DNA of 63,851 bases, counting the filler. It is 4 parts of 4 records of this genome, joined end to end, with 100 filler letters (N's around TTAATTAATTAA, not from the genome) between each part and the next. Parts side by side here need not be neighbours in the genome. Positions count along the whole stretch, not along the records: positions 36,722 to 57,515 come from SRR20825006_435; 3 more parts are not named here. One strand, given 5' to 3'. The position numbers were made by a program, and so were the translations under genes. Below, piece by piece: positions 2,881-57,733 of this stretch. The notes beneath the pieces are model-generated. The model worked only from the letters and a program-made list of their open reading frames with translations. It did no database searches and was not told where the DNA came from. The number at the start of each line of letters is the position of its first letter. Within the stretch, counting starts at the first letter, position 1.

Positions 2881-3879
2881 TTAGTTTTCCTGCCGCTTGG
2901 ACGAGATGAGCCAGGCATCCGCCGCCTTCACCGCCATAACAAGCGTGTCGCCCGCCCGCACAAAGAAATCATGTGTCAGATCGCCATAATCATCCGAAGG
3001 GGCGTGATATCCGGGATGGTCTTCGACCCCAAAATACAGAAATGGAATGCCGATCTCGTGAAAGACGGCATGATCGGACTGGTTGGTCCAGTCATCCTGT
3101 CCGAGTTCAGGCGAGTCATGTCCTGTGAGCAGGGTTACCGGCACTTGGGTGGCCAAATCATCAATCATGGGCTTCAGCTGCGGGTAAGGCGTGGTGCCAG
3201 CGACATAGAGTTCTCCCGCGTCGGATCGTCCAACCATGTCGAAATTCATGTTCAATGCGACCCGCCCAAGATCAATCAGCCCAGATTCGACCAGAGCCTT
3301 TGCGCCCTGATAGCCGATTTCTTCGGCGTCCAGCGCGGCAAAGACGATGTCATGCTTGGGAGGATTTCGCTCGAAATATTCTGCGACACCGACAAGCGCG
3401 GCCACACCAGAGGCATTGTCGTCAGCGCCATTATATATTTCTCCGTCAACGATGCCGAGATGGTCGTAATGGGCCGTAACCACGAGCATGGGGCCCCGCC
3501 CCGGCGTCTCCCCGGCGATCCAGCCAACAATATTCACACCGTCTGCCGGTTCCGATAACCCGTCCATTGGCCCCGGCAGGACTGGAAAGGCGTACTCGTA
3601 TGTCCCGTGGAACCTGCGCAGCTCCATCGCCTCGAACCGCTTCAGGATGAATCCCCGTGCTGCGGCATTGCCCGATGATCCCGCAGCACGGCCTTCCAGT
3701 GCGTCCGAGGAAAGCGTTTCCGTCAGGTTCAGCATGGCTGGGCCGTCTACATACATCGCGCGATACTCCGTGAGACGGTCCGCCACGTCGTCATCGCGGT
3801 TCATGTAGAAGAAGACGCCCGCGACAATCATCACAATGAAAAGAACTTCGGCGAGAATGAAGGCGCGCATTCTGGTCAT
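2881..3879 (-). CDS. M28 family metallopeptidase with N-terminal membrane anchor
   Basis: TAHYDHLG, GADDNASG, DAEEIG, NFDMVGR, SDH and YH motifs; start codon uncertain. Confidence 0.9.
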   Translation of the reverse strand: MTRMRAFILAEVLFIVMIVAGVFFYMNRDDDVADRLTEYRAMYVDGPAMLNLTETLSSDALEGRAAGSSGNAAARGFILKRFEAMELRRFHGTYEYAFPVLPGPMDGLSEPADGVNIVGWIAGETPGRGPMLVVTAHYDHLGIVDGEIYNGADDNASGVAALVGVAEYFERNPPKHDIVFAALDAEEIGYQGAKALVESGLIDLGRVALNMNFDMVGRSDAGELYVAGTTPYPQLKPMIDDLATQVPVTLLTGHDSPELGQDDWTNQSDHAVFHEIGIPFLYFGVEDHPGYHAPSDDYGDLTHDFFVRAGDTLVMAVKAADAWLISSKRQEN

Positions 3880-4014
3880 GGGGGCAAATCCAATCATGAT
3901 TTCTGTTATTACCACTTTAGAGTTGCCCTCCTGATGTCACAATCGGTTCAGCCGGATGCTTGACGTCGCAGGTGCTAAACGCCAGTTCTGCCACGCAACT
4001 GGAAGGAACTGCCC

Positions 4015-4251
4015 ATGGCCATGTCACGCGAGACGCTGCTCGGATATCTCACCGACGCTTTCCCGGAAGCCGAGATCACGCTGACCGACCTGGCGGGCGA
4101 CGACAATCACTGGCAGGCCGAGATTGTCAGCAGCCAGTTCGCAGGCATTCCCCGCGTGAAGCAGCACCAATTGGTCTATTCTGCCCTGAAAGGCACGATG
4201 GGGGGCGAACTTCATGCGCTGGCCTTGAAAACGCGGGCACCGGATTCCTGA
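4015..4251 (+). CDS. bolA: BolA family protein
   Basis: DLAGDDNHW, QHQLVY, LHALALKT. Confidence 0.93.
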   Translation: MAMSRETLLGYLTDAFPEAEITLTDLAGDDNHWQAEIVSSQFAGIPRVKQHQLVYSALKGTMGGELHALALKTRAPDS

Positions 4252-4321
4252 ATCTGACGCATTGACGATACGGTCGGTTCGTTATTGTTTCATCCGCAAC
4301 CAAGGATGAGGAAACGACCCC

Positions 4322-6181
4322 ATGAAACGCCTGACCTTAACCACCAGCGCCATCGCGCTGAGCTTCATGATTGCGGCCTGCGCCGCGCCTGAAGCTGTAG
4401 ATGAAACAACTCTCGACACCGCGCCTGAAGTGGTCGCTGAAGTCGATCATTCCGTAGAAATCGCTGAGGCCCGCGCCTTCCTGGAGCGCGCCGAAGCTGA
4501 ACTCGCCGCGCAGAGCCGTATTGCCGCGCAAGCCTACTGGAACCAGGCCACGAACATCACGCCCGAAACCAACGCGCTCGCAGCCGAAGCTGGTGCGGCA
4601 TCGACCATCCTCGCCGTTTCACTCGCGAATGAGTCCAAGCAGTTCGATGTCAGCGTCCTGCCAGCTGATTTGGCGCGCAAGATGACCATGTTGCGTACCG
4701 GGATCACGATCCCTGCCCCGTCGACGCCGGGCGCAGCCGAGGAGCTTTCGCAGATCACCACCAATCTCGACGCGACCTACGGCACCGGGAAATTCACCTA
4801 TAAGGGCGAGGCACTGAACCTCGACCAATTGTCGACGATCATTGAAACCAGCCGCGACCCGGAAGAACTCAAAGCTGTCTGGGAAGGCTGGCGCACGATC
4901 TCCGTGCCGATGAAGGACGATTATGCCCGCATGGTCGAGATCGCCAATGAAGGCGCAAATGAGCTTGGCTTCGAAAGCCTCGATCAGATGTGGCTGTCCG
5001 GCTACGACATGGCACCGGAAGAGATGGAAGCTGAAGTGCAACGTCTGTGGACGCAGGTGGAGCCGCTTTATGAAGAGCTGCACTGCTTCACCCGCGCCAA
5101 ACTGAATGAAGAATACGGCGACGATGTGCAGCCGCGCACCGGCCCAATCCGCGCTGACCTGTTGGGTAATATGTGGGCCCAGCAATGGTCATCCATCTAT
5201 GACGTCGTGAAGCCTGACGTGCCGGGACCAAGCTACGACCTGACCGAACGCCTCAACGAAAAGGGCTATGACGCCATCAAAATGGTCGAGACAGGCGAAA
5301 CCTTCTTCACCTCCCTCGGCCTCGAGCCGCTGCCGGAAACTTTCTGGGAGCGTTCCATGATCGTGCGCCCAGAGGGCCGCGAAGTCGTTTGCCACGCCTC
5401 AGCCTGGGATCTGGACGATGAGGAAGATGTACGCATCAAGATGTGTACCGAAGTGAACTCGGAAGACTTCTATACGGTCCATCACGAACTGGGTCACAAT
5501 TTCTACCAGCGCGCCTACAAGGATCAGGACTACTTGTACAAAACCGGCGCACATGATGGCTTCCATGAGGCCATCGGCGACTTTGTCGGCTTGTCGATCA
5601 CACCGGAATACCTCGAACAGATCAATCTGATCACCGCTGAGGAAAAGCCGGGCGCTGATGCCGACACGGCACTTCTGATGCAGACCGCGCTCGACAAGAT
5701 CGCCTTCCTGCCGTTTGCGCTGACCGTTGATGGCTGGCGCTGGGATGTCCTGTCTGGTGAAACTGCGCCAGAGGCCTACAACACGTCATGGTGGGATCTC
5801 CGCCTGAAAAATCAGGGCCTCGTACCACCGGCCCCGCGCCCGGCAGACGCCTTCGATCCCGGCGCGAAGTACCACATTCCGGGCAACACGCCCTATTTGC
5901 GCTACTTCCTGAGCTACATCCTGCAGTTCCAGTTCCACAAGGCCGCTTGTGAGCAGGCTGGCTGGGAAGGACCGCTGCATCGCTGCTCGATCTATGACAA
6001 CAAGGAAGTGGGCAAACGCTTCAATGCCATGCTGGAAGCTGGCGCGTCACAGCCTTGGCCGGACACGCTGGAAGAATTCACCGGCACTCGCGAAATGGAT
6101 GGCAGCGCGATCATCGAGTATTTCGATCCGCTGATGCTCTATATGAAAGACCAGAACGCCACCGAGAGCTGTGGCTGGTAA
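4322..6181 (+). CDS. M2 family peptidyl-dipeptidase (ACE-like), predicted lipoprotein
   Basis: LLGNMWAQQW, CHASAWD, HHELGH, GFHEAIGD, FDPGAKYHI; lipobox IAAC. Confidence 0.95.
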   Translation: MKRLTLTTSAIALSFMIAACAAPEAVDETTLDTAPEVVAEVDHSVEIAEARAFLERAEAELAAQSRIAAQAYWNQATNITPETNALAAEAGAASTILAVSLANESKQFDVSVLPADLARKMTMLRTGITIPAPSTPGAAEELSQITTNLDATYGTGKFTYKGEALNLDQLSTIIETSRDPEELKAVWEGWRTISVPMKDDYARMVEIANEGANELGFESLDQMWLSGYDMAPEEMEAEVQRLWTQVEPLYEELHCFTRAKLNEEYGDDVQPRTGPIRADLLGNMWAQQWSSIYDVVKPDVPGPSYDLTERLNEKGYDAIKMVETGETFFTSLGLEPLPETFWERSMIVRPEGREVVCHASAWDLDDEEDVRIKMCTEVNSEDFYTVHHELGHNFYQRAYKDQDYLYKTGAHDGFHEAIGDFVGLSITPEYLEQINLITAEEKPGADADTALLMQTALDKIAFLPFALTVDGWRWDVLSGETAPEAYNTSWWDLRLKNQGLVPPAPRPADAFDPGAKYHIPGNTPYLRYFLSYILQFQFHKAACEQAGWEGPLHRCSIYDNKEVGKRFNAMLEAGASQPWPDTLEEFTGTREMDGSAIIEYFDPLMLYMKDQNATESCGW

Positions 6182-6698
6182 ACACCGTTCCCAATTGACG
6201 CGGTCACCCAGACGAATAGTCCTGTGGGTGGCCGCTGTCTTTTTTGTCATCGGTGGCCTTGCTGCCAGCAATCCGTTGAACAGATACCTGCTCTGGCGAA
6301 ACCTAAGCGTAGACAAGCTGGATCGGATGATAGACTCGCATCTTCATGAACGTCATGAAGGTGTAGAATATGCCTGTCTCTACACCGTCACTTGCGCCAG
6401 CGGGCGGGCGCGATTGGAATTGAGGACCAGCCTGTCAGACACTGAACTTGATGACATCAGAGAAGCTATTTGGCGCCGTAAGTTCGAGGACTACTGCCCG
6501 GGCAGAACAACGAATTTGGGGCTTGAATTTCTCACGCCGGACGCCGGTCAGGCACGCCGGGACATTTGGACGTTCGGAGGAGGATTCATGGGCGAACACA
6601 CCCGGTTTAATGGCGGATCCTTTTCACAAGAGGCACCATGGGAACCCTGCACTCTGGAACGCGCCTATTGGCACCGCGAACCGGATTCAGTCCCTTGA
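6171..6698 (+). CDS. Hypothetical membrane-anchored protein
   Basis: 175-aa ORF overlapping the ACE stop; N-terminal hydrophobic segment, four Cys. Confidence 0.6.
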   Translation: MAGKHRSQLTRSPRRIVLWVAAVFFVIGGLAASNPLNRYLLWRNLSVDKLDRMIDSHLHERHEGVEYACLYTVTCASGRARLELRTSLSDTELDDIREAIWRRKFEDYCPGRTTNLGLEFLTPDAGQARRDIWTFGGGFMGEHTRFNGGSFSQEAPWEPCTLERAYWHREPDSVP

Positions 6699-31184: not shown

Positions 31185-31374
31185 CCGTACACCCCCAGTC
31201 GGTCAGTCAAGATATGATAATCATTATAGAATTCTATCCTAACCTACCAATCAATTATTGTTTATAGCAAGTCGTGCGGCAATGCCGTTAGAATGCCGAT
31301 GAACTTTAGTGCATCTTGCGTTTAGCGGCGCTTTTCGCAAAGTTTGAATAACAACAATATGGGAGGATATACCA

Positions 31375-47580: not shown

Positions 47581-47588
47581 TCAAAAAG

Positions 47589-47646
47589 TAAAACACGATG
47601 TTTTACTTAATGCAACACATTGTTTTAAGTAAAACCTGATGTTTTA
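47589..47646. promoter_or_regulatory. OR-like triple operator
   Basis: 17-bp sites TAAAACACGATGTTTTA (47589), TGCAACACATTGTTTTA (47611), TAAAACCTGATGTTTTA (47630). Confidence 0.85.
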
Positions 47647-47661
47647 TGTGAAAATCATGCG

Positions 47662-48051
47662 ATGAAAAAAGATAGAATCAGCCGAATAGAAGAATGGCGA
47701 CAGGATCAGGGCTTTAGCAAAGCTGATCTTGCGCGCTATTTTGGTGTTGATAGCCAGACGTACAACAACTGGACCTACCGCAACAGCCTTCCGAAAGAGT
47801 ATTACGACAGGGCTGAGCAAATTCTCTCTGGCAATGTCTCCGCTACCCGAGAAGGCAGAAAAACAATCTTAGCCGCCAAGCCACTAGAAGTAAGAGAAAG
47901 CTCTTGGACTTATGGCAACAATAAACAAAAATTTGACCTCAGCTCCCTCGACGAGCAAGAACTTGCAGAAGTAATGATCGCGGCGCTGTCTTCCCTCTCC
48001 CCTGCTGGTCGAAAGGCAATTCTTCAGGCGCTGATTGACGAGCTTCTATAA
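47662..48051 (+). CDS. CI-like XRE HTH repressor (no S24 peptidase domain)
   Basis: SKADLARYFGVDSQTYNNW HTH; 129 aa. Confidence 0.8.
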   Translation: MKKDRISRIEEWRQDQGFSKADLARYFGVDSQTYNNWTYRNSLPKEYYDRAEQILSGNVSATREGRKTILAAKPLEVRESSWTYGNNKQKFDLSSLDEQELAEVMIAALSSLSPAGRKAILQALIDELL

Positions 48052-50430: not shown

Positions 50431-50617
50431 TCTAGTCATTCCAGCAACCCGCACCCATGGCAGATGGGGCGCAGCAGGCAACCAGCGCAGAGCCGCACCC
50501 CTTTTGCGGCGTTTTAACGGCTGGCCAGGCCAATAATCTGCAAGCCGGAATTGAAGTTTTCCATAGCCGGTAGCCCCGCCGGTGGCGACAGAGGGGCAAA
50601 ACTTAAGGAGGAGTTTT

Positions 50618-51040
50618 ATGCACGAGCACACAGAGCAACACCTCAACTACCAGCCAGGCTATCGGCTGGCACCGCGAGAAGGCGAAGCGCTGGTATTAGG
50701 CGCCATCGGCAAAACCACCAAAGAAGCCGCAAAAATCATGAACGTAGCGCCGGCCACCGTGAAGGCCTACCAAGACCGCGCCCGAGAAAAGCTTGGCGCC
50801 AAGAACATTGCCCACGCTGTGAGCATCGCCTGGGAAAAAGGCCTGCTTACCGCAAAGCACCTAATGGTTAGCGCGCTGATCCTGTCAGCCGCCTTCGCAC
50901 CGCTCGACGACAACAGCGACGACCTCCGCAGCAATGGCCGCGTAGTGCGCACGCAGCGCCAAGGCCGCAGCGGCCGCCGTCGCGAGAGAACATTCGACTT
51001 CTTGCCACCCGAAATTCAGCCAGAGGAATTGCCAGCATGA
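50618..51040 (+). CDS. LuxR-type HTH protein with Arg-rich C-terminus
   Basis: LAPREGEAL...GKTTKEAAKIMNVAPATVKAY...KLGAKN; AGGAG RBS. Confidence 0.85.
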   Translation: MHEHTEQHLNYQPGYRLAPREGEALVLGAIGKTTKEAAKIMNVAPATVKAYQDRAREKLGAKNIAHAVSIAWEKGLLTAKHLMVSALILSAAFAPLDDNSDDLRSNGRVVRTQRQGRSGRRRERTFDFLPPEIQPEELPA

Positions 51041-51762: not shown

Positions 51763-52044
51763 ATGTCACAACACGCACCCAGTACAACCCAAAAAGCCCT
51801 GATCAAAGCGCTAGAGCGCGCCGGCACCGCTACGCAAGCCCAGCTCTGCCAGGCCGTAAACCGGCGCCCCGCCACCGTGTCCGCAGCCATGACCCAGCTA
51901 GAACAAGCGGGGCTCGTTAACGCCACATGGCAAGGCCGCCCACGCGAAAAACATTACCGACTACCCCAAGCCAAGAACGCGCGCCGCATCGCTCGCGGCC
52001 CTTGGATCAACCCTCAATGGATGGAGAAACCGCAATGGCTTTGA
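51763..52044 (+). CDS. MarR-like winged-helix protein
   Basis: [36 protein letters not shown]. Confidence 0.75.
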
Positions 52045-52223
52045 TACTCACCCGCCGCATTGGCGAAACCCTAATGGTCGGCGACGACGTCACCGTCACC
52101 GTGCTAGGCACCAAAGGCAACCAGGTGCGCCTGGGCGTAAACGCACCCAAGCACATCGCCGTGCACCGCGAGGAAATTTACGAGCGCGTGCAAGCAAACA
52201 CCAACAAGGACACCGCAGCATGA
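52035..52223 (+). CDS. csrA: Carbon storage regulator CsrA/RsmA homologue (phage-encoded)
   Basis: [52 protein letters not shown]. Confidence 0.95.
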
Positions 52224-53004: not shown

Positions 53005-53366
53005 CACACCACAACCGCATGCGATGCAGCGCCGAGACCTACCACCAAGCCATGAGCGACGCCCTGCAAAACACACGTGGCACAGATGACGTCTCATGGA
53101 ATAAAGATTTTAAGGCCTCGCTCATTCAGCGCGGCCTATGGCTCACCACCCAGCCTCCGGCGCGCAACACCGCCCTATACCCCAACGGAATGCCCTACCT
53201 AGCACCCCGTTGCTATGGCGCAAAAAACGGCTGGCCGCAAATTACCTATGTTGTATGGATGGTAGACGCCAGCAAAGCATCGCCGCCAACCTGGGTAACA
53301 GCGACACGAATAGGCTGCGCAGCGCTGCTGCTGGTAGCACTGGCTGCGCATTACCTTTTCAGTTGA
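53001..53366 (+). CDS. Hypothetical protein with C-terminal TM segment
   Basis: ATGA-coupled ORF. Confidence 0.6.
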   Translation: MTHHNRMRCSAETYHQAMSDALQNTRGTDDVSWNKDFKASLIQRGLWLTTQPPARNTALYPNGMPYLAPRCYGAKNGWPQITYVVWMVDASKASPPTWVTATRIGCAALLLVALAAHYLFS

Positions 53367-53394
53367 TGTGCATAATCTTGCCGAGGAATAGCTA

Positions 53395-53754
53395 ATGAAG
53401 GACGAATTTCTGGAGCAGTTGGCTGCACTATGCGAGCAATACAGCGCCACTTTTCGATACACCACCAATGACGACGGAATTCATATCGACGTTGGCGGCG
53501 AAGAGGTGTTCGCAGGATTCATGCTGACCGGCAAAGCAGCCGCAAGTGAGCTTCGTGCAGCAAAAAGGGATTTCGCCCGGAGAGCAGGCGACAACAAAGC
53601 AACCGATCAAATGATTGACCGGCTTATGCCGGACCCAGATGGAATATGCTGCCCTCTTTGCCACTATGACGGATGCTGGGACGGCACACCCAAAAGCGAA
53701 AGAAGAGGCGCAATCAGGGAGCTTCTAGAAAAAGCCTTTCGCGAGGAACCCTGA
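53395..53754 (+). CDS. Hypothetical protein; stop codon lies inside the distal attC
   Basis: GAGG RBS; CCPLC..C motif; TGA at 53752-53754. Confidence 0.65.
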   Translation: MKDEFLEQLAALCEQYSATFRYTTNDDGIHIDVGGEEVFAGFMLTGKAAASELRAAKRDFARRAGDNKATDQMIDRLMPDPDGICCPLCHYDGCWDGTPKSERRGAIRELLEKAFREEP

Positions 53755-53834
53755 ACACACGGGCAGGCAAAACGCGCAGCGGTTTGACTGTCCGACGGAG
53801 CGCAGCGGAGTGAACGTGCTGTGATTTGTTAAAA
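53743..53834 (-). repeat. attC site 4 (distal, 92 bp)
   Basis: Minus: TTTTAAC-AAATC-ACA(G)CACG ... CGTGTGT-TCAGG-GTTCCTC; extra base at L'' position 4. Confidence 0.85.
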
Positions 53835-53854
53835 CGCCGGATAAGGACTTGATT

Positions 53855-54055
53855 ATGAGTATTTGTAAGCACGGTACAGATTTAGATGATTACGACTGCA
53901 TGAACTGCGAAAACGAAGACGACCTGATAGCTGAAGCTGCTGGAGATATTCACCACCTGTACATGAATTGCGACGGCGGAGAGGTTCCGCAAATAGAGGA
54001 CATTACTAGAGTGCTGAATTCGCTCGTTGATAATTTGAGTGAAGAGGCGTTTTAA
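53855..54055 (+). CDS. Cassette A gene: small acidic Cys/His protein
   Basis: AAGGA RBS; CKH...CMNC; flanked by GTTAAAACGCC / GGCGTTTTAAC. Confidence 0.75.
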   Translation: MSICKHGTDLDDYDCMNCENEDDLIAEAAGDIHHLYMNCDGGEVPQIEDITRVLNSLVDNLSEEAF

Positions 54056-54121
54056 CCCGCAGGACAGCGGTGAGGAACGAAGCGCAGCGTAGAGACGATC
54101 CGCTGCTACTGATTGTTAAAT
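54050..54121 (-). repeat. attC site 3 (72 bp)
   Basis: Minus: ATTTAAC-AATCA-GTA(G)CAGCGG ... CCGCTGTCC-TGCGG-GTTAAAA. Confidence 0.85.
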
Positions 54122-54134
54122 GCAGGAATTTAAA

Positions 54135-54416
54135 ATGAAGAAACAAAGTAATCCGGCGCCACCGAAAAGCGTGAAGAGGCCGCCGCCCCCACCGGCACCG
54201 CCTCCGCCACGAAGCCCGACCGGGAAGGGAGCGAGCAGACGGCCCGAATTTGATGCTTACAGCAAAATGCTGGCCTGCATACCAACAACGTGGCTTGACC
54301 CGTTGCTGACAGGCCCACACAAGGTTTTGCCTGATGGATATAGCTACAGCCCAAAGGATGTTGAGCGACTGCTGCAGGCGATACGGCACCGCATGGAAAA
54401 AGCTGCGGGCATTTAA
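54135..54416 (+). CDS. Cassette B gene: protein with Pro-rich N-terminus
   Basis: AGGA RBS; RPPPPPAPPPPR; flanked by GTTAAATGC / GCATTTAAC. Confidence 0.7.
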   Translation: MKKQSNPAPPKSVKRPPPPPAPPPPRSPTGKGASRRPEFDAYSKMLACIPTTWLDPLLTGPHKVLPDGYSYSPKDVERLLQAIRHRMEKAAGI

Positions 54417-54536
54417 CCCTGAGTTTTGCGGCCTGCGGAAACGAACACACTGGAGACGATGATGAAGAACGAAACTACCGAGATTGAAACCGATGCGCCG
54501 ACCCAGCAGGTCGCGCCCAACAACGAGTTGTTATCG
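54411..54536 (-). repeat. attC site 2 (126 bp; contains start of cassette C gene)
   Basis: Minus: CGATAAC-AACTC-GTT(G)TTG..GCGACCTGC ... GCAGGCCGCAAAAC-TCAGG-GTTAAAT. Confidence 0.8.
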
Positions 54537-54749
54537 GGCTTTGCGACTGCCGAGGAATTGATTGGCTATTGCGAAATCCACTGCACTACAGAAAGAGCGC
54601 TGTTCAGCGGCAAGCAAATAATCGACATGTTGGTGCTCGCTGGCTACCGCGAGGACACTACGAGTCAGATCGATACGCAAGAGTGGATGTCGGTTCATGG
54701 CGACATGTCCCGCCTCTGCCGAATGGCTCGGGCACGGATGGCCCGATAA
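54459..54749 (+). CDS. Cassette C gene: hypothetical protein
   Basis: GGAG RBS at 54452 inside attC2; core pair GTTATCGGGC / GCCCGATAAC. Confidence 0.75.
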   Translation: MMKNETTEIETDAPTQQVAPNNELLSGFATAEELIGYCEIHCTTERALFSGKQIIDMLVLAGYREDTTSQIDTQEWMSVHGDMSRLCRMARARMAR

Positions 54750-54869
54750 CGACAAAGCTCAGGTGCGGCCAAAAGCCAGTCCTCTAACGAAGACTAGGAG
54801 ATTAAAGCTATGAAGAACTTTACGAAACCCGCGTTGCTTTTGGCCGTCGCCTGGAGCGCCTTGTTAGCG
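54744..54869 (-). repeat. attC site 1 (proximal, 126 bp; encodes signal peptide of cassette D gene)
   Basis: Minus: CGCTAAC-AAGGC-GCT(C)CAGG-CG(A)CGGCCAAAAGC ... GCTTTTGGCCGCA-CCTGAGC-TTTGTC-GTTATCG; canonical box spacing and extrahelical bases. Confidence 0.92.
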
Positions 54870-55073
54870 GGATGCACGAATGCAAATGACGCTCACAGGG
54901 CCCTGACCAATGCCGGGTATACAAACATCCAGACGGGCGGATATGACTGGTTTGCCTGCGGGAATGAAGATTTCTATGCGACAAAATTCAAGGCCACTAA
55001 CCCGGCAGGGAAGCAAGTAAGCGGTGTTGTTTGCTCTGGGCTGCTGTTCAAAAGTGCGACTATCAGGTTTTGA
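54810..55073 (+). CDS. Cassette D gene: small lipoprotein
   Basis: AGGAG RBS; lipobox LLAGC; GYDWFAC...VSGVVCSG; core pair GTTAGCGG / CCGCTAAC. Confidence 0.85.
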   Translation: MKNFTKPALLLAVAWSALLAGCTNANDAHRALTNAGYTNIQTGGYDWFACGNEDFYATKFKATNPAGKQVSGVVCSGLLFKSATIRF

Positions 55074-55110
55074 CCGCTAACCAGTGACTATCAAGCCAAA
55101 GGTCAGTTAA
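55074..55110 (-). other. Putative attI site (crossover G|TT at 55081/55080)
   Basis: GTTAGCG core on the minus strand 45 bp upstream of intI, with no attC hairpin behind it; extent of the site is a guess. Confidence 0.7.
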
Positions 55111-55125
55111 CGCCGGGAGGCAGCT

Positions 55126-56094
55126 ATGAAAGGCAAGGATTTACTACAACAATCAGACCATAAAATGCGGTTTCTTGGGTACTCAAGAGCCACCCGCCGT
55201 AGCTACCTTGGCTGGCTGGCGCAGTATTTCCGTTGGTGCCTGGAAAACCCGACCGGCACAAGCGAGGAAAAAGCCCAGCGCTTTCTGACCCATTTGGCTG
55301 TTGCCCGCACCGTTAGCAGATCAACTCAGCACCAGGCGCTATGTGCCGTGGCATGGTTTTACAAACACATGGCCGCCCAGCCCCTTGGCAACATTGGTCA
55401 ATTCGTCAATACCGCTCGAGGCAGCAAGCTACCCGCCGTGCTATCACAAGACGAGATGCGCCGTTTGCTGGCCGCAATGCGTGGGCAAAACTGGCTCATT
55501 GCTTCCGTGATGTACGGCGGTGGATTGCGACTCACCGAAGCCCTTTCGCTGCGCGTCAAAGACGTAGACGTTGGTCGCCAGCAGGTAACCGTGCGCCAGG
55601 GCAAGGGAAACAAGGATCGCACCACCACCCTATCCAGCTCGATTAGCCAGCAAATTTTGGCCCAGGTAGAGCGCGTTGAACACCAGCATCAACAAGACAT
55701 CGCGGCCGGCTTTGGCGAAGTCTACCTGCCCAATGCCATCGCAAAAAAATACCCCAACGCCCACCGACAAACCGCATGGCAGTACCTTTTCCCCGCCAGC
55801 AAGATCGGAGCATGCCCCGATACCGGCGCACTGCGTCGCCACCACGTGCACCCTACCGCCTTCACCAAAGCGCTAAGGGCCGCAAAAAAGGCGGCGAAGA
55901 TCAACAAACACTTCACCGCCCACGCCCTTCGCCATAGCTTCGCCACACACATGCTGGAGAACGGCGCCGATATCCGCACCGTGCAAGAGCTACTAGGTCA
56001 CAAAGACGTATCGACCACAATGATCTACACGCACGTGATGCAAAAGCACCACGTGCGCAGCCCACTGGAGGCTATAAGCGCCTGCGCAAGTTGA
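55126..56094 (+). CDS. intI: Integron integrase
   Basis: YSRATRRSY, FLTHLA, STQHQAL, LPAVLS, YGGGLR, GKGNKDR, IntI-specific insert EVYLPNAIAKKYPNA..WQYLFPA..RRHH, HALRHSFATH, LLGH, TMIYTHV. Confidence 0.95.
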   Translation: MKGKDLLQQSDHKMRFLGYSRATRRSYLGWLAQYFRWCLENPTGTSEEKAQRFLTHLAVARTVSRSTQHQALCAVAWFYKHMAAQPLGNIGQFVNTARGSKLPAVLSQDEMRRLLAAMRGQNWLIASVMYGGGLRLTEALSLRVKDVDVGRQQVTVRQGKGNKDRTTTLSSSISQQILAQVERVEHQHQQDIAAGFGEVYLPNAIAKKYPNAHRQTAWQYLFPASKIGACPDTGALRRHHVHPTAFTKALRAAKKAAKINKHFTAHALRHSFATHMLENGADIRTVQELLGHKDVSTTMIYTHVMQKHHVRSPLEAISACAS

Positions 56095-56154
56095 CAGCAC
56101 GCCGCCCCACTGACCACTATAAATCCACCACCACACAGCACGGATACCCACGGA

Positions 56155-57393
56155 ATGGCCAGGAAACGCATCGTAGACGGGCTGGAGCTGCCCGAAAACC
56201 TCTACCAGACCCCGCGCAAGGAACCCGGCAAATGGCGCTACAAACGCCCCGATGGCAGCTTCTACACCTTCACCGCGACCACGCAAGACGCCATCGCCGC
56301 CGCGCAAGGCCTCAATGCACAGTTCGCCGCGGGCGCCAAAGTCACCCCAGCCACCAATCCGCAGTACGGCCGCCTCAGCATTCGCCGGCACGTCGAAGAC
56401 TTTATCGACGAGCGCGAGAAGCGCGAACCCAGCCTGCGCAACAAAACCAGCTGGGGCAATCGCAAAGCCTACCTGCGCAGCTACGCCACCCTAAATGCTG
56501 GAAAATCCGTCTCGCAAATCACCTTGCTCGACGTGCAAGCCTGGTGGGACACCCTCACCGGCCACGCCCAGCGCAGCCGACAACCCGAATTTCGCCGGTT
56601 CTTCAACCACCTGCTGGCACGCGGCCTTTGCCCAAAACTTGATGCCAACCCCTTCAGCAGCAGCGACGCCGCACCACGAGTGGAAATGTCAGCCAAGCCA
56701 GCCAAACAGCGCCTGCGCCTCTCTCAAGAGCAATTCTGGCTTATCTACAACCAGGCAGGGGAAAAATACCCATTCCTGCAGATCGCCATGGCCATTAGCC
56801 TCATCACCACCCTACGCCGAGGCGATATCTGCGACCTACAATTCGACGAACATGTGGTCGGCAATCTGCTCAGAAAGCAGATCAACAAAAGCCACGCCCA
56901 GCTCAGCAAAGAATTTGAGCGCCGAGGCGGCAAGGCCGACCCAGCCAACCTAAGCTGGGACCTCAACAAACACCCCCTACTGCGCCAAGTCATCAACCGC
57001 GCCCGCGAACTCAGCCTCAGCCACCAGCGCTGCCCCAGCCTACTCAGCCACAAATACAAACGCCGCTACAAAAGCCAACATCGCAGCCACCCTTACCAGG
57101 TACTACCAAAATTCCTGAGCGACGCCTTCGCCGAGATCCGCGACGAAACCACAGACACAAACGGCAAGAAGCTCTTCGCCGACGTCCAACCAAAGCACCG
57201 CCCCACCTTCCACGAAGTCCGAAGCCTCGCTGGCGACATCTACGCCAACGCAGGCTACACCAAAGCCCAAATCCGAGAGCTCTACGCCCACACAGACGAA
57301 AGCACCACCGAGCGATACCTCAGCGGACACAGTGAAAAATGGCAGGAAATGGACCTCATCATGCCCACAGACGCACTAAGCGGACAATTCTGA
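56155..57393 (+). CDS. int: Prophage tyrosine integrase
   Basis: N-terminal arm-binding region (LPENLY..WRYKRPDG), LRRGDI, PTFHEVRSLA, HT...TERY; adjacent to a tRNA end. Confidence 0.9.
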   Translation: MARKRIVDGLELPENLYQTPRKEPGKWRYKRPDGSFYTFTATTQDAIAAAQGLNAQFAAGAKVTPATNPQYGRLSIRRHVEDFIDEREKREPSLRNKTSWGNRKAYLRSYATLNAGKSVSQITLLDVQAWWDTLTGHAQRSRQPEFRRFFNHLLARGLCPKLDANPFSSSDAAPRVEMSAKPAKQRLRLSQEQFWLIYNQAGEKYPFLQIAMAISLITTLRRGDICDLQFDEHVVGNLLRKQINKSHAQLSKEFERRGGKADPANLSWDLNKHPLLRQVINRARELSLSHQRCPSLLSHKYKRRYKSQHRSHPYQVLPKFLSDAFAEIRDETTDTNGKKLFADVQPKHRPTFHEVRSLAGDIYANAGYTKAQIRELYAHTDESTTERYLSGHSEKWQEMDLIMPTDALSGQF

Positions 57394-57489: not shown

Positions 57490-57515
57490 TGGTACGACCG
57501 AGTGGATTCGAACCA
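57490..57515 (-). tRNA. tRNA 3' end (Val-like), probable prophage att core
   Basis: Minus strand reads TGGTTCGAATCCACTCGGTCGTACCA, resembling the 3' end of tRNA-Val(GAC); anticodon not visible. Confidence 0.7.
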
Positions 57516-57615
57516 NNNNNNNNNNNNNNNNNNNNNNNNNNNNNNNNNNNNNNNNNNNNTTAATTAATTAANNNNNNNNNNNNNNNNNNNNNNNNNNNNN
57601 NNNNNNNNNNNNNNN
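57516..57615. other. Artificial contig spacer
   Basis: N-run + TTAATTAATTAA + N-run. Confidence 0.98.
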
Positions 57616-57733
57616 CGACCGCACCATCGACAGCCACATCAAGCGCCTGCGCAAGAAGTTCAAGGCGACCGATGACGACTTCGAGATGATCGAAACGCTC
57701 TATGGCGTCGGTTATCGCTTCAAGGAGCAGTAA
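57616..57733 (+). CDS. chvI: Response regulator ChvI, C-terminal fragment
   Basis: [38 protein letters not shown]. Confidence 0.92.

Follow-up and report, generated by a model that had tools for sequence, protein, structure and literature searches.

Can the recombination hairpin of an integron cassette also carry the start of a gene, including the export signal of its product? This question is raised by a locus in the window analysed here (the whole stretch of 63,851 nucleotides, numbered from its first letter), in which a predicted attC site (attC1 of cassette 1, positions 54744–54869, 126 bp, top strand on the − strand and recombinogenic bottom strand on the + strand) overlaps the 5′ end of a gene for a small lipoprotein (54810–55073, + strand, 87 amino acids). 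An initial annotation, made from the letters alone, had described one 126-bp element as a recombination hairpin, a translation-initiation region and an export signal at once. With covariance models, the open reading frame (ORF) and 29 homologues taken into account, this description holds as a prediction, the element encoding most of the lipoprotein signal peptide. The triple overlap is most likely a variant of the known attC system with a reversed gene, for which both recombination and expression are predicted. The explanation advanced with good confidence in the following is that of a phage-borne integron in which a canonical attC also serves a reversed cassette gene as its 5′ leader and as the region encoding its signal peptide.

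Layout and identity of the hairpin site

Read along the + strand, attC1 opens with the R′ box CGATAAC of the bottom strand (54744–54750), which overlaps the TAA stop codon (54747–54749) of the upstream cassette ORF. The non-coding 5′ arm (54751–54776), delimited by sequence, inverted-repeat search and DNA fold, comprises an unpaired spacer of 6 nt (54751–54756), the L′ box (54757–54763), a TG (54764–54765), and the 5′ side of an 11-bp stem (54766–54776). It is followed by a variable terminal structure of 59 nt (54777–54835), which holds the ribosome-binding site (RBS) AGGAG (54796–54800), the start codon ATG at 54810, 9 nt from the RBS, and codons 1–9; RBS and start codon had been placed correctly within the variable loop by the initial annotation. 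The coding 3′ arm (54836–54869), delimited by sequence, ORF and DNA fold, encodes LLLAVAWSALLA and consists of the 3′ side of the stem (54836–54846), an extrahelical T at 54847 (position 23 from the 3′ end), a CG (54848–54849), the L″ box with an extrahelical G (54850–54857; the G at 54853 or 54854, i.e., position 16/17), an unpaired spacer of 5 nt (54858–54862), and the R″ box GTTAGCG (54863–54869). The two stem sides (54766–54776 and 54836–54846) form a perfect 11-nt inverted repeat, six stem positions, one of them a G:T pair, separate the extrahelical G and T, and the extrahelical G of L″ falls inside a Trp codon of the lipoprotein ORF. Between the R′ box CGATAAC and the R″ box GTTAGCG, 6 of 7 positions pair; with CCGCTAA, the end that belongs to the cassette itself, the match is complete. 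In the reading frame, the first letter of GTTAGCG completes a Leu codon and the remaining six give TTA (Leu) and GCG (Ala), with GGA and TGC next; the earlier statement that GTTAGCG provides the L-L-A of LLAGC was confirmed by reading the ORF.

Two covariance models were built for assessing the site. Model R1 comprised eight short attC sites in all, drawn from three related loci (L001, L002, and L085) and from the window (attC3), attC1 being excluded; model R2 was trained on 46 attC sites (R1 matches) of 26 other integron loci, excluding sites from the window, L001, L002, and L085. As alignments of attC sites with MAFFT were structurally inconsistent, an alignment with a hand-written structure was used instead. 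Searching all 63,851 bases on both strands with filters off, R2 matched 54744–54869 on the − strand with 55.3 bits (E-value 3.2e-12). Only three places reached an E-value of 5 or lower in the window, namely attC1, attC3 (11.8 bits), and a place at 31262 (9 bits), so that attC1 is both the only strong R2 match in the window and the best-scoring attC of the array. R1 with filters off scored attC1 at 27.2 bits, and both models matched it solely on the − strand. In the R2 training alignment, which had been fitted to the model and hence favours such figures, 93.3% of the cells pair (72.0% in shuffles, none of 500 reaching the observed value) and two-sided changes occur in 192 cells (57.6 in shuffles), with pairing dropping to 26–40% when the partners are slid. 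Across 78 other IntI loci, all 52 R1 matches (E-value ≤ 0.05) lay opposite to the intI strand and upstream of intI.

The fold of attC1 was evaluated against shuffled sequences. As DNA, the + strand reached −23.2 kcal/mol (z −2.56; 4 of 200 shuffles equally good) and the − strand a z-score of −2.40 (6 of 200), and as RNA −43.6 kcal/mol were obtained (z −2.51; 4 of 200). In the predicted mRNA fold, a long helix encloses RBS and AUG within a large loop, as had been proposed for the RBS in the initial annotation; the variable region itself is predicted to be mostly unpaired, apart from a small hairpin of 5 bp whose loop contains the AUG. The mRNA helix may modulate translation.

A strict scan for R and L boxes returned four places in the window compared to a mean of 0.8 in 20 shuffles. 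The three places other than attC1 were an operator-like palindrome, found on both strands, and a site inside intI. The former (47588–47647) consists of two palindromes on GTAAAAC/GTTTTAC just upstream of the repressor-like ORF 47662–48051, and these repeated operator-like palindromes before a repressor-like gene were rejected as attC; so was the match at 55242–55362, which lies inside intI.

By every tested feature, 54744–54869 belongs to the attC class, with recombination predicted: R′ and R″ pair, L boxes are present, the spacers measure 6 and 5 nt, the length is 126 bp, and the site is clustered with other sites, four of them on the − strand within 1.2 kb, with the start of intI 257 bases downstream of attC1. 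The decisive support for this identity comes from the models and not from the modest fold alone. The modest z-score of the fold would also suit a palindrome that arose by chance or has a regulatory function (operator or attenuator of translation) and precedes an ordinary phage lipoprotein gene as part of its leader. In 34 of 37 lipoprotein loci, core-site repeats are absent from the flanks and the surroundings resemble ordinary phage operons, the complement being restricted to the window, L085, and L086. Such a palindrome is nevertheless very improbable in view of the R2 E-value, the distance to intI, the register with three other attC sites, the core-site complements flanking each cassette body, and the lack of any Rfam family match in 53500–55300. 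A regulatory role of the hairpin can coexist with its role as attC.

Strand assignment and the reversed gene

In the published description of attC sites (PMC5027507), the bottom strand carries AAC in the R′ box on the 5′ arm, whereas the extrahelical bases are found close to L″ on the opposite arm, in most cases a G at position 16 and a T at position 23 or 24 that are separated by a 6-bp stem; spacers measure 5–6 nt, the total length is 57–141 bp, and cleavage of the bottom strand takes place within the AAC of R′. The + strand of attC1 fits this description in every point. AAC-ending boxes occur on the + strand at 53743, 54050, 54411, 54744, and 55075, and GTT-starting boxes at 53829, 54115, 54530, 54863, and 55108, each GTT box complementing the next AAC box 200–300 nt further on (54527–54539 with 54741–54753 at 12 of 13 positions, 54860–54870 with 55074–55084 at 10 of 11). 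On either side of the mature coding part of the lipoprotein gene lies an 8-nt perfect complement of GTTAGCGG (54863–54870) and CCGCTAAC (55074–55081). This chain of boxes is the known signature of cassettes, and, being symmetric, is silent on which strand is the top strand.

The end of the array next to intI was located by comparison with two relatives, L001 (a Porticoccaceae metagenome-assembled genome (MAG), IntI 77% identical) and L002 (a Porticoccus MAG, IntI 53% identical). L001 shares with the window roughly 45 bases from the intI start to the core site, while the cassette beside them differs; the corresponding region of L002 is more weakly conserved and likewise stands next to a different cassette. 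Because the same stretch adjoins different cassettes in L001 and L002, 55081–55125 (− strand, from the crossover between 55080 and 55081 to the intI start codon) was assigned as the attI region, at which the array starts. The 40-bp element CGCTAAC...GTTAACG at 55075–55114, a candidate for a short attC, was therefore rejected as belonging to this attI, which is conserved in the relatives.

Public contigs from four runs (X1, X3, X4, and X5), none of which covers 54616–54991, provided a natural variant; as evidence, use was made solely of contigs spanning that interval with other letters. The X1 contig joins 53746 to 54054, skipping 307 bases with a slack of 5 letters (AACCC on both sides). Predicted cassette 4, if cut between A and C in both AAC boxes, spans 53749–54055 and hence exactly 307 bases, whereas cuts in the GTT boxes would remove 286; the deletion thus fits AAC-box and not GTT-box boundaries.

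Since published criteria, relatives, models, and natural deletion variant agree, the + strand is assigned from sequence as the recombinogenic bottom strand, with the crossover of attC1 between A54749 and C54750 (predicted cleavage within R′ on the + strand, by the published rule and the endpoints of the deletion variant in the same array) and GTTAGCG as R″. This departs from the initial annotation, which had taken GTTAGCG as the core, i.e., the crossover site on a + top strand; the crossover lies instead in CGATAAC, after CGATAA, and with the earlier placement the gene would span two cassettes. That earlier reading, in which the gene starts in the attC of the preceding cassette owing to genome-size pressure, draws on the stop codons of the ORFs, which on the + strand fall within xxxTAAC boxes or next to them, as is usual for cassettes, and on cassettes 3 and 4, which can be read either way. 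It is highly improbable, as the extra bases on the arm opposite AAC mark the + strand as bottom strand, both models match the − strand only, the last attC of such a + array would measure just 40 bp and corresponds to the conserved attI, and the 307-base deletion of X1 ends in AAC boxes. Genome-size pressure as a cause finds no support, the nearest genome (G001) measuring 4.2 Mb, and need not be invoked; the overlap follows from a backwards gene, as it does in cassette 2.

Cassette 1 therefore spans 54750–55080 (331 bp, − strand) and contains attC1 and the whole lipoprotein gene on the bottom strand. The gene is whole but backwards in its cassette, reading towards attI and intI; this brings its 5′ end up against the attC of its own cassette, and its start overlaps attC1. 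It consequently differs from the gene of an ordinary cassette, which runs in the direction of the attC top strand, has the attC at its 3′ end, and is expressed from Pc.

The proposed arrangement can be described as follows. The platform is canonical, with attC top strands opposite to intI and the array starting at the 5′ end of intI. The cassette genes, by contrast, occupy the bottom strand of attC; each is preceded at its 5′ end by the attC of its own cassette and reads towards attI and intI. The non-coding 5′ hairpin arm (54751–54776) would serve as 5′ untranslated region (UTR), the 59-nt variable loop would supply RBS, ATG, and the charged N-region, and the 3′ arm (stem, L″, spacer, and R″) would encode the L-A of the lipobox together with the hydrophobic core of the signal peptide. 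The pairing constraints could be met by the h-region, which belongs to the part of a protein most tolerant of sequence change, and as one arm alone would be under coding constraint, the free non-coding arm could compensate. IntI presumably still recombines attC1.

The lipoprotein gene and related loci

The ORF 54810–55073 begins MKNFTKPALLLAVAWSALLAGC. Lipoproteins exported via the Sec/SPII pathway carry a positive N-region, a hydrophobic h-region, and a lipobox [LVI][ASTVI][GAS]C within about 35 residues. The predicted signal peptide comprises residues 1–21 with the N-region MKNFTK, the h-region PALLLAVAWSAL, and the lipobox LAG/C, of which Cys22 is encoded at 54873–54875, and fits this pattern. 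The protein matches phrog_902 (E-value 6e-25, residues 9–87); homologues comprised 29 sequences in a large protein collection, 4 genome loci, and 35 metagenome loci. In the family alignment of 29 sequences, 11 columns are invariant, among them Cys22, and all sequences possess a hydrophobic N-terminus. No match was found for the protein in Pfam and NCBIfam, and its structure model, although confident (pLDDT 81.4), had no PDB match at an E-value ≤ 0.001. Judging from other small lipoproteins of phages, a role at the surface or in exclusion would be a guess only.

From the lipobox to the GVVC motif of the conserved domain, the frame contains neither ATG nor GTG nor TTG; translation must therefore start upstream, and 54810, with AGGAG 9 nt ahead, is from sequence the evident start. 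The possibility that the ORF is not expressed as annotated, having its start elsewhere or being a relic gene, could draw on the homologous copy in L085, which has no start; given an intact frame, an RBS 9 nt from the ATG, a signal peptide and Cys typical of the family in 29 of 29 sequences, and no alternative in-frame start before the conserved domain, it is hardly credible. A 9-base start context, AGCTATGAA, is common to the lipoprotein gene (54806–54814) and intI (55122–55130), which may be chance.

The overlap recurs in L086, a metagenome contig whose lipoprotein is 66% identical at the amino acid level and whose mature coding part is surrounded by core-site complements. Its 124-bp attC (2349–2472; R2 24.4 bits, E-value 1e-4; R1 15.7 bits) contains the RBS, ATG, and signal peptide of the lipoprotein gene. 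Reading the sequence by eye, the extra bases are G16, T20, and T24, and 5 of 7 pairs of the L box differ from the window with pairing kept. In L085, a 124-bp attC (783–906; R2 42.3 bits) also contains an ORF start. P0003, a near relative of the L085 lipoprotein, has a full signal peptide; since the L085 copy possesses neither start nor signal peptide, the overlap can evidently be lost. Also in L085, two near-identical 64-bp attC sites (1046–1109 and 1788–1851) belong to two cassettes, one with a crAss001_48-like gene and one with the lipoprotein body, and their identity stops right after the GTTAGC of R″.

Reversed genes are not confined to cassette 1. Within the clade, 4 of 13 bottom-strand cassette ORFs have a family match (the lipoprotein in the window, crAss001_48 and Phage_gp49_66 in L085, and Dam in L002), compared to 0 of 10 top-strand ORFs. 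In other integrons, the longest ORF lies on the top strand in 20 of 22 inter-attC intervals.

Array, activity and genomic setting

The integron is a small array of four cassettes. Cassette 2 (54417–54749) carries attC2 (54411–54536, − strand, 126 bp, core-site complementarity 12/13), which holds the start and the first 26 codons of the ORF 54459–54749. Of seven homologues of this ORF, five do not have the 28 attC-encoded residues and start where attC2 ends, and the two closest share the 28-residue extension. Cassette 3 (54056–54416) carries attC3 (54050–54121, − strand, 72 bp; 33.3 bits with R1, whose training set included it, in addition to the R2 score given above) and the ORF 54135–54416 on the + strand; cassette 4 (53749–54055) carries attC4 (53743–53835, − strand, 93 bp, R1 13.3 bits) and the ORF 53855–54055 on the + strand.

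Variation at the first array positions was observed in the public contigs. Those of X3, X4, and X5 match the window from 55078 rightwards, which bears out the attI boundary, and differ leftwards (816, 577, and 521 other letters, respectively). All three carry the same attI and intI, X3 and X5 with 36–38 other letters in 1023. The X5 contig additionally holds a copy resembling attC2 (54414–54533; 15 other letters, 4 gaps) with unrelated DNA on both sides. The first array positions hence vary between contigs, from which activity of attC1 itself does not follow.

Several results weigh against a functional attC1 with a reversed gene. Among the metagenome loci and the four runs, no contig was found with cassette 1 excised or located elsewhere. 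Two neighbouring sites are weak, attC2 reaching 9.8 bits with R1 and neither attC2 nor attC4 being found by R2 at an E-value ≤ 5. R1 with default filters missed attC1, and R2 is not wholly independent, because R1, which derives from this clade, picked its training sites. The hairpin fold alone, with a large 59-nt loop and a z-score of about −2.5, lends modest support. The closest homologue of the lipoprotein (L085, 71%) has its mature part after a short 64-bp attC, with no start or workable signal peptide. The longest ORF per interval in this clade is ambiguous as well, lying on the + strand in 6 of 11 intervals and on the − strand in 5 of 11. Lastly, a scan for sigma-70-like promoters on the + strand between 51500 and 56200 found none; with no promoter-like site on this strand, the cassette genes would be transcribed by read-through, as a + strand polycistron running from the upstream island operon into intI.

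Part of these results would be accounted for by a fossil attC, which has kept its shape, is no longer recombined by IntI, and now serves just as 5′ UTR and leader of a fixed gene. Contig evidence for movement of cassette 1 is lacking, the loop is large, attC2 and attC4 are weak, and R′ and R″ pair at just 6 of 7 positions in the array. An imperfect R′/R″ match is, however, expected where the neighbouring cassette contributes part of the R′ in an array, and CCGCTAA, the end of cassette 1 itself, matches perfectly. Moreover, attC1 is the best-scoring site of the array with all published bottom-strand features intact, intI is full-length, the cassettes beside the same attI vary between contigs, and one cassette was lost precisely. 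A fossil site is thus considered unlikely, and a canonical attC that still recombines and leads a reversed gene is preferred.

For a phage-associated integron lineage as a whole, whose cassettes would have their genes on the attC bottom strand and whose arrays would be read towards attI and intI, a more tentative proposal, which we consider somewhat less probable than its opposite, is that attC acts as a portable 5′ module supplying RBS, start codon, and N-terminal leader (a lipoprotein signal peptide in cassette 1, a 28-residue extension in cassette 2), with the gene body fused at R″ and the array forming the tail of a phage operon with no Pc promoter. A start motif ATG-(codon)-AAC-GAA-AC (M-x-N-E-T) was noted as common to long attC sites of different cassettes (window 54459–54480, L001 1268–1285, L085 852–866, and, more loosely, attC1 at 54810–54830). 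The sharing hints that the start region belongs to an attC family and not to individual genes.

The integron integrase gene intI (55126–56094, + strand, 322 amino acids; domains Phage_integrase and Phage_int_SAM_4) matches TIGR02249 with 367 bits against a curated cut-off of 265, covering residues 7–316 of 322. Downstream of it, a lambda-type (phage-type) tyrosine integrase (56155–57393, + strand) adjoins a truncated tRNA 3′ end at about 57490–57516 (− strand) at the contig joint; ARAGORN detected no tRNA in the window. Upstream, the stretch from 47.6 to 52.2 kb contains genes with matches in phage families (repressor-like, phrog_1353, phrog_3989, sigma factor, and CsrA-like). From these phage-family genes on one side and the phage-type integrase with the tRNA end on the other, the integron is placed at the end of a prophage-like island. 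In G001, the nearest genome, nothing matches 53300–56100.

Compared to canonical attC sites of class 1 integrons and the VCRs of Vibrio, attC1 shares R′/R″ with AAC/GTT, L boxes, spacers of 5–6 nt, G16/T23, a length within 57–141 bp, and a top strand opposite to intI. It differs in that the gene lies on the bottom strand and the attC at the 5′ end of the gene, with RBS, start, and 20 codons. Designed attC sites within coding sequences (Nivina et al. 2020, PMC7439510) combine structural and coding constraints in one stretch of DNA in the same manner, and in both cases a tolerant peptide is used, i.e., linkers in the designed sites and the signal-peptide h-region in attC1. As described there, however, those sites were made in silico, whereas attC1 is natural, includes the translation-initiation region, and has one coding arm.

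Reverse integrons, known from Treponema and others, are characterised in the cited accounts by an intI transcribed towards attI and on the same strand as attC (PMC3607928, PMC4889954, PMC6557892). The co-direction of intI and cassette genes is common to both, but the intI of the window reads away from attI and opposite to the attC top strands, so that by those accounts it is not a reverse integron; the co-direction results here from genes reversed inside their cassettes. Toxin-antitoxin cassettes of chromosomal integrons carry their own promoters (PMC11023631), and their genes are likewise independent of Pc. In contrast to the cassettes described in that source, no own promoter was detected in the scan here, the attC overlaps the 5′ end of the gene, and wherever a cassette of this clade has an assignable gene, that gene is reversed. 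Integrons and attC clusters also occur in phage genomes, as reported by Qi et al. 2023 (PMC9892861), which the present integron resembles in its phage-related element with cassette genes such as phrog_902, crAss001_48, gp49/66, and Dam. As general background, some toxin-antitoxin cassettes lie reversed.

According to theory as given in PMC11023631 and PMC5027507, selectivity for the bottom strand serves to make promoterless genes face away from Pc and attI. The window combines canonical attC sites with assignable genes that point in the opposite direction and start inside their own attC. In full-text literature searches, which covered sources outside subscription journals and supplements, neither a natural attC with a start codon or signal peptide nor arrays of bottom-strand genes were found, which is not proof of their absence. 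To our knowledge, a hairpin doubling as translation start and export signal is otherwise known from designed sites only. If attC1 is active, a natural recombination hairpin can double as translation start and export signal, integrons can form the tail of an operon within phage-like elements, and the join of attC and gene body at R″ bears on the question of cassette origin. Should the lineage proposal be true as well, it would add a third integron topology and a natural view of cassette making. Cassettes of this kind would be mis-assigned by annotation pipelines in which each attC is expected to follow its gene.

Further observations concern the surroundings of the array and its relatives. A phage sigma-factor-like gene (50582–51040) and a CsrA-like regulator (51927–52223; phrog_9500, E-value 1.5e-30) lie upstream of the cassettes. 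At 57490–57620, a run of N, a 12-base linker with stops in all frames, and a second run of N mark an artificial joint of two contigs, and the sequence to the right of 57616 belongs to another contig (64% GC) with two-component system genes. In L002, weak attC-model matches on the − strand (R1: 5179–5250, 5729–5796, 6089–6137; R2: 6089–6137, 6335–6393) lie downstream of intI between small + strand ORFs (5179–6393), and its integrase may accordingly be situated inside an array or beside a second one, as far as the models indicate. In five viral contigs from IMG/VR (L121–L125, about 3000–5000), IntI relatives with 42–45% identity end co-directional phage-like operons with at most one attC-model match each, all of which lie opposite to the intI strand and upstream.

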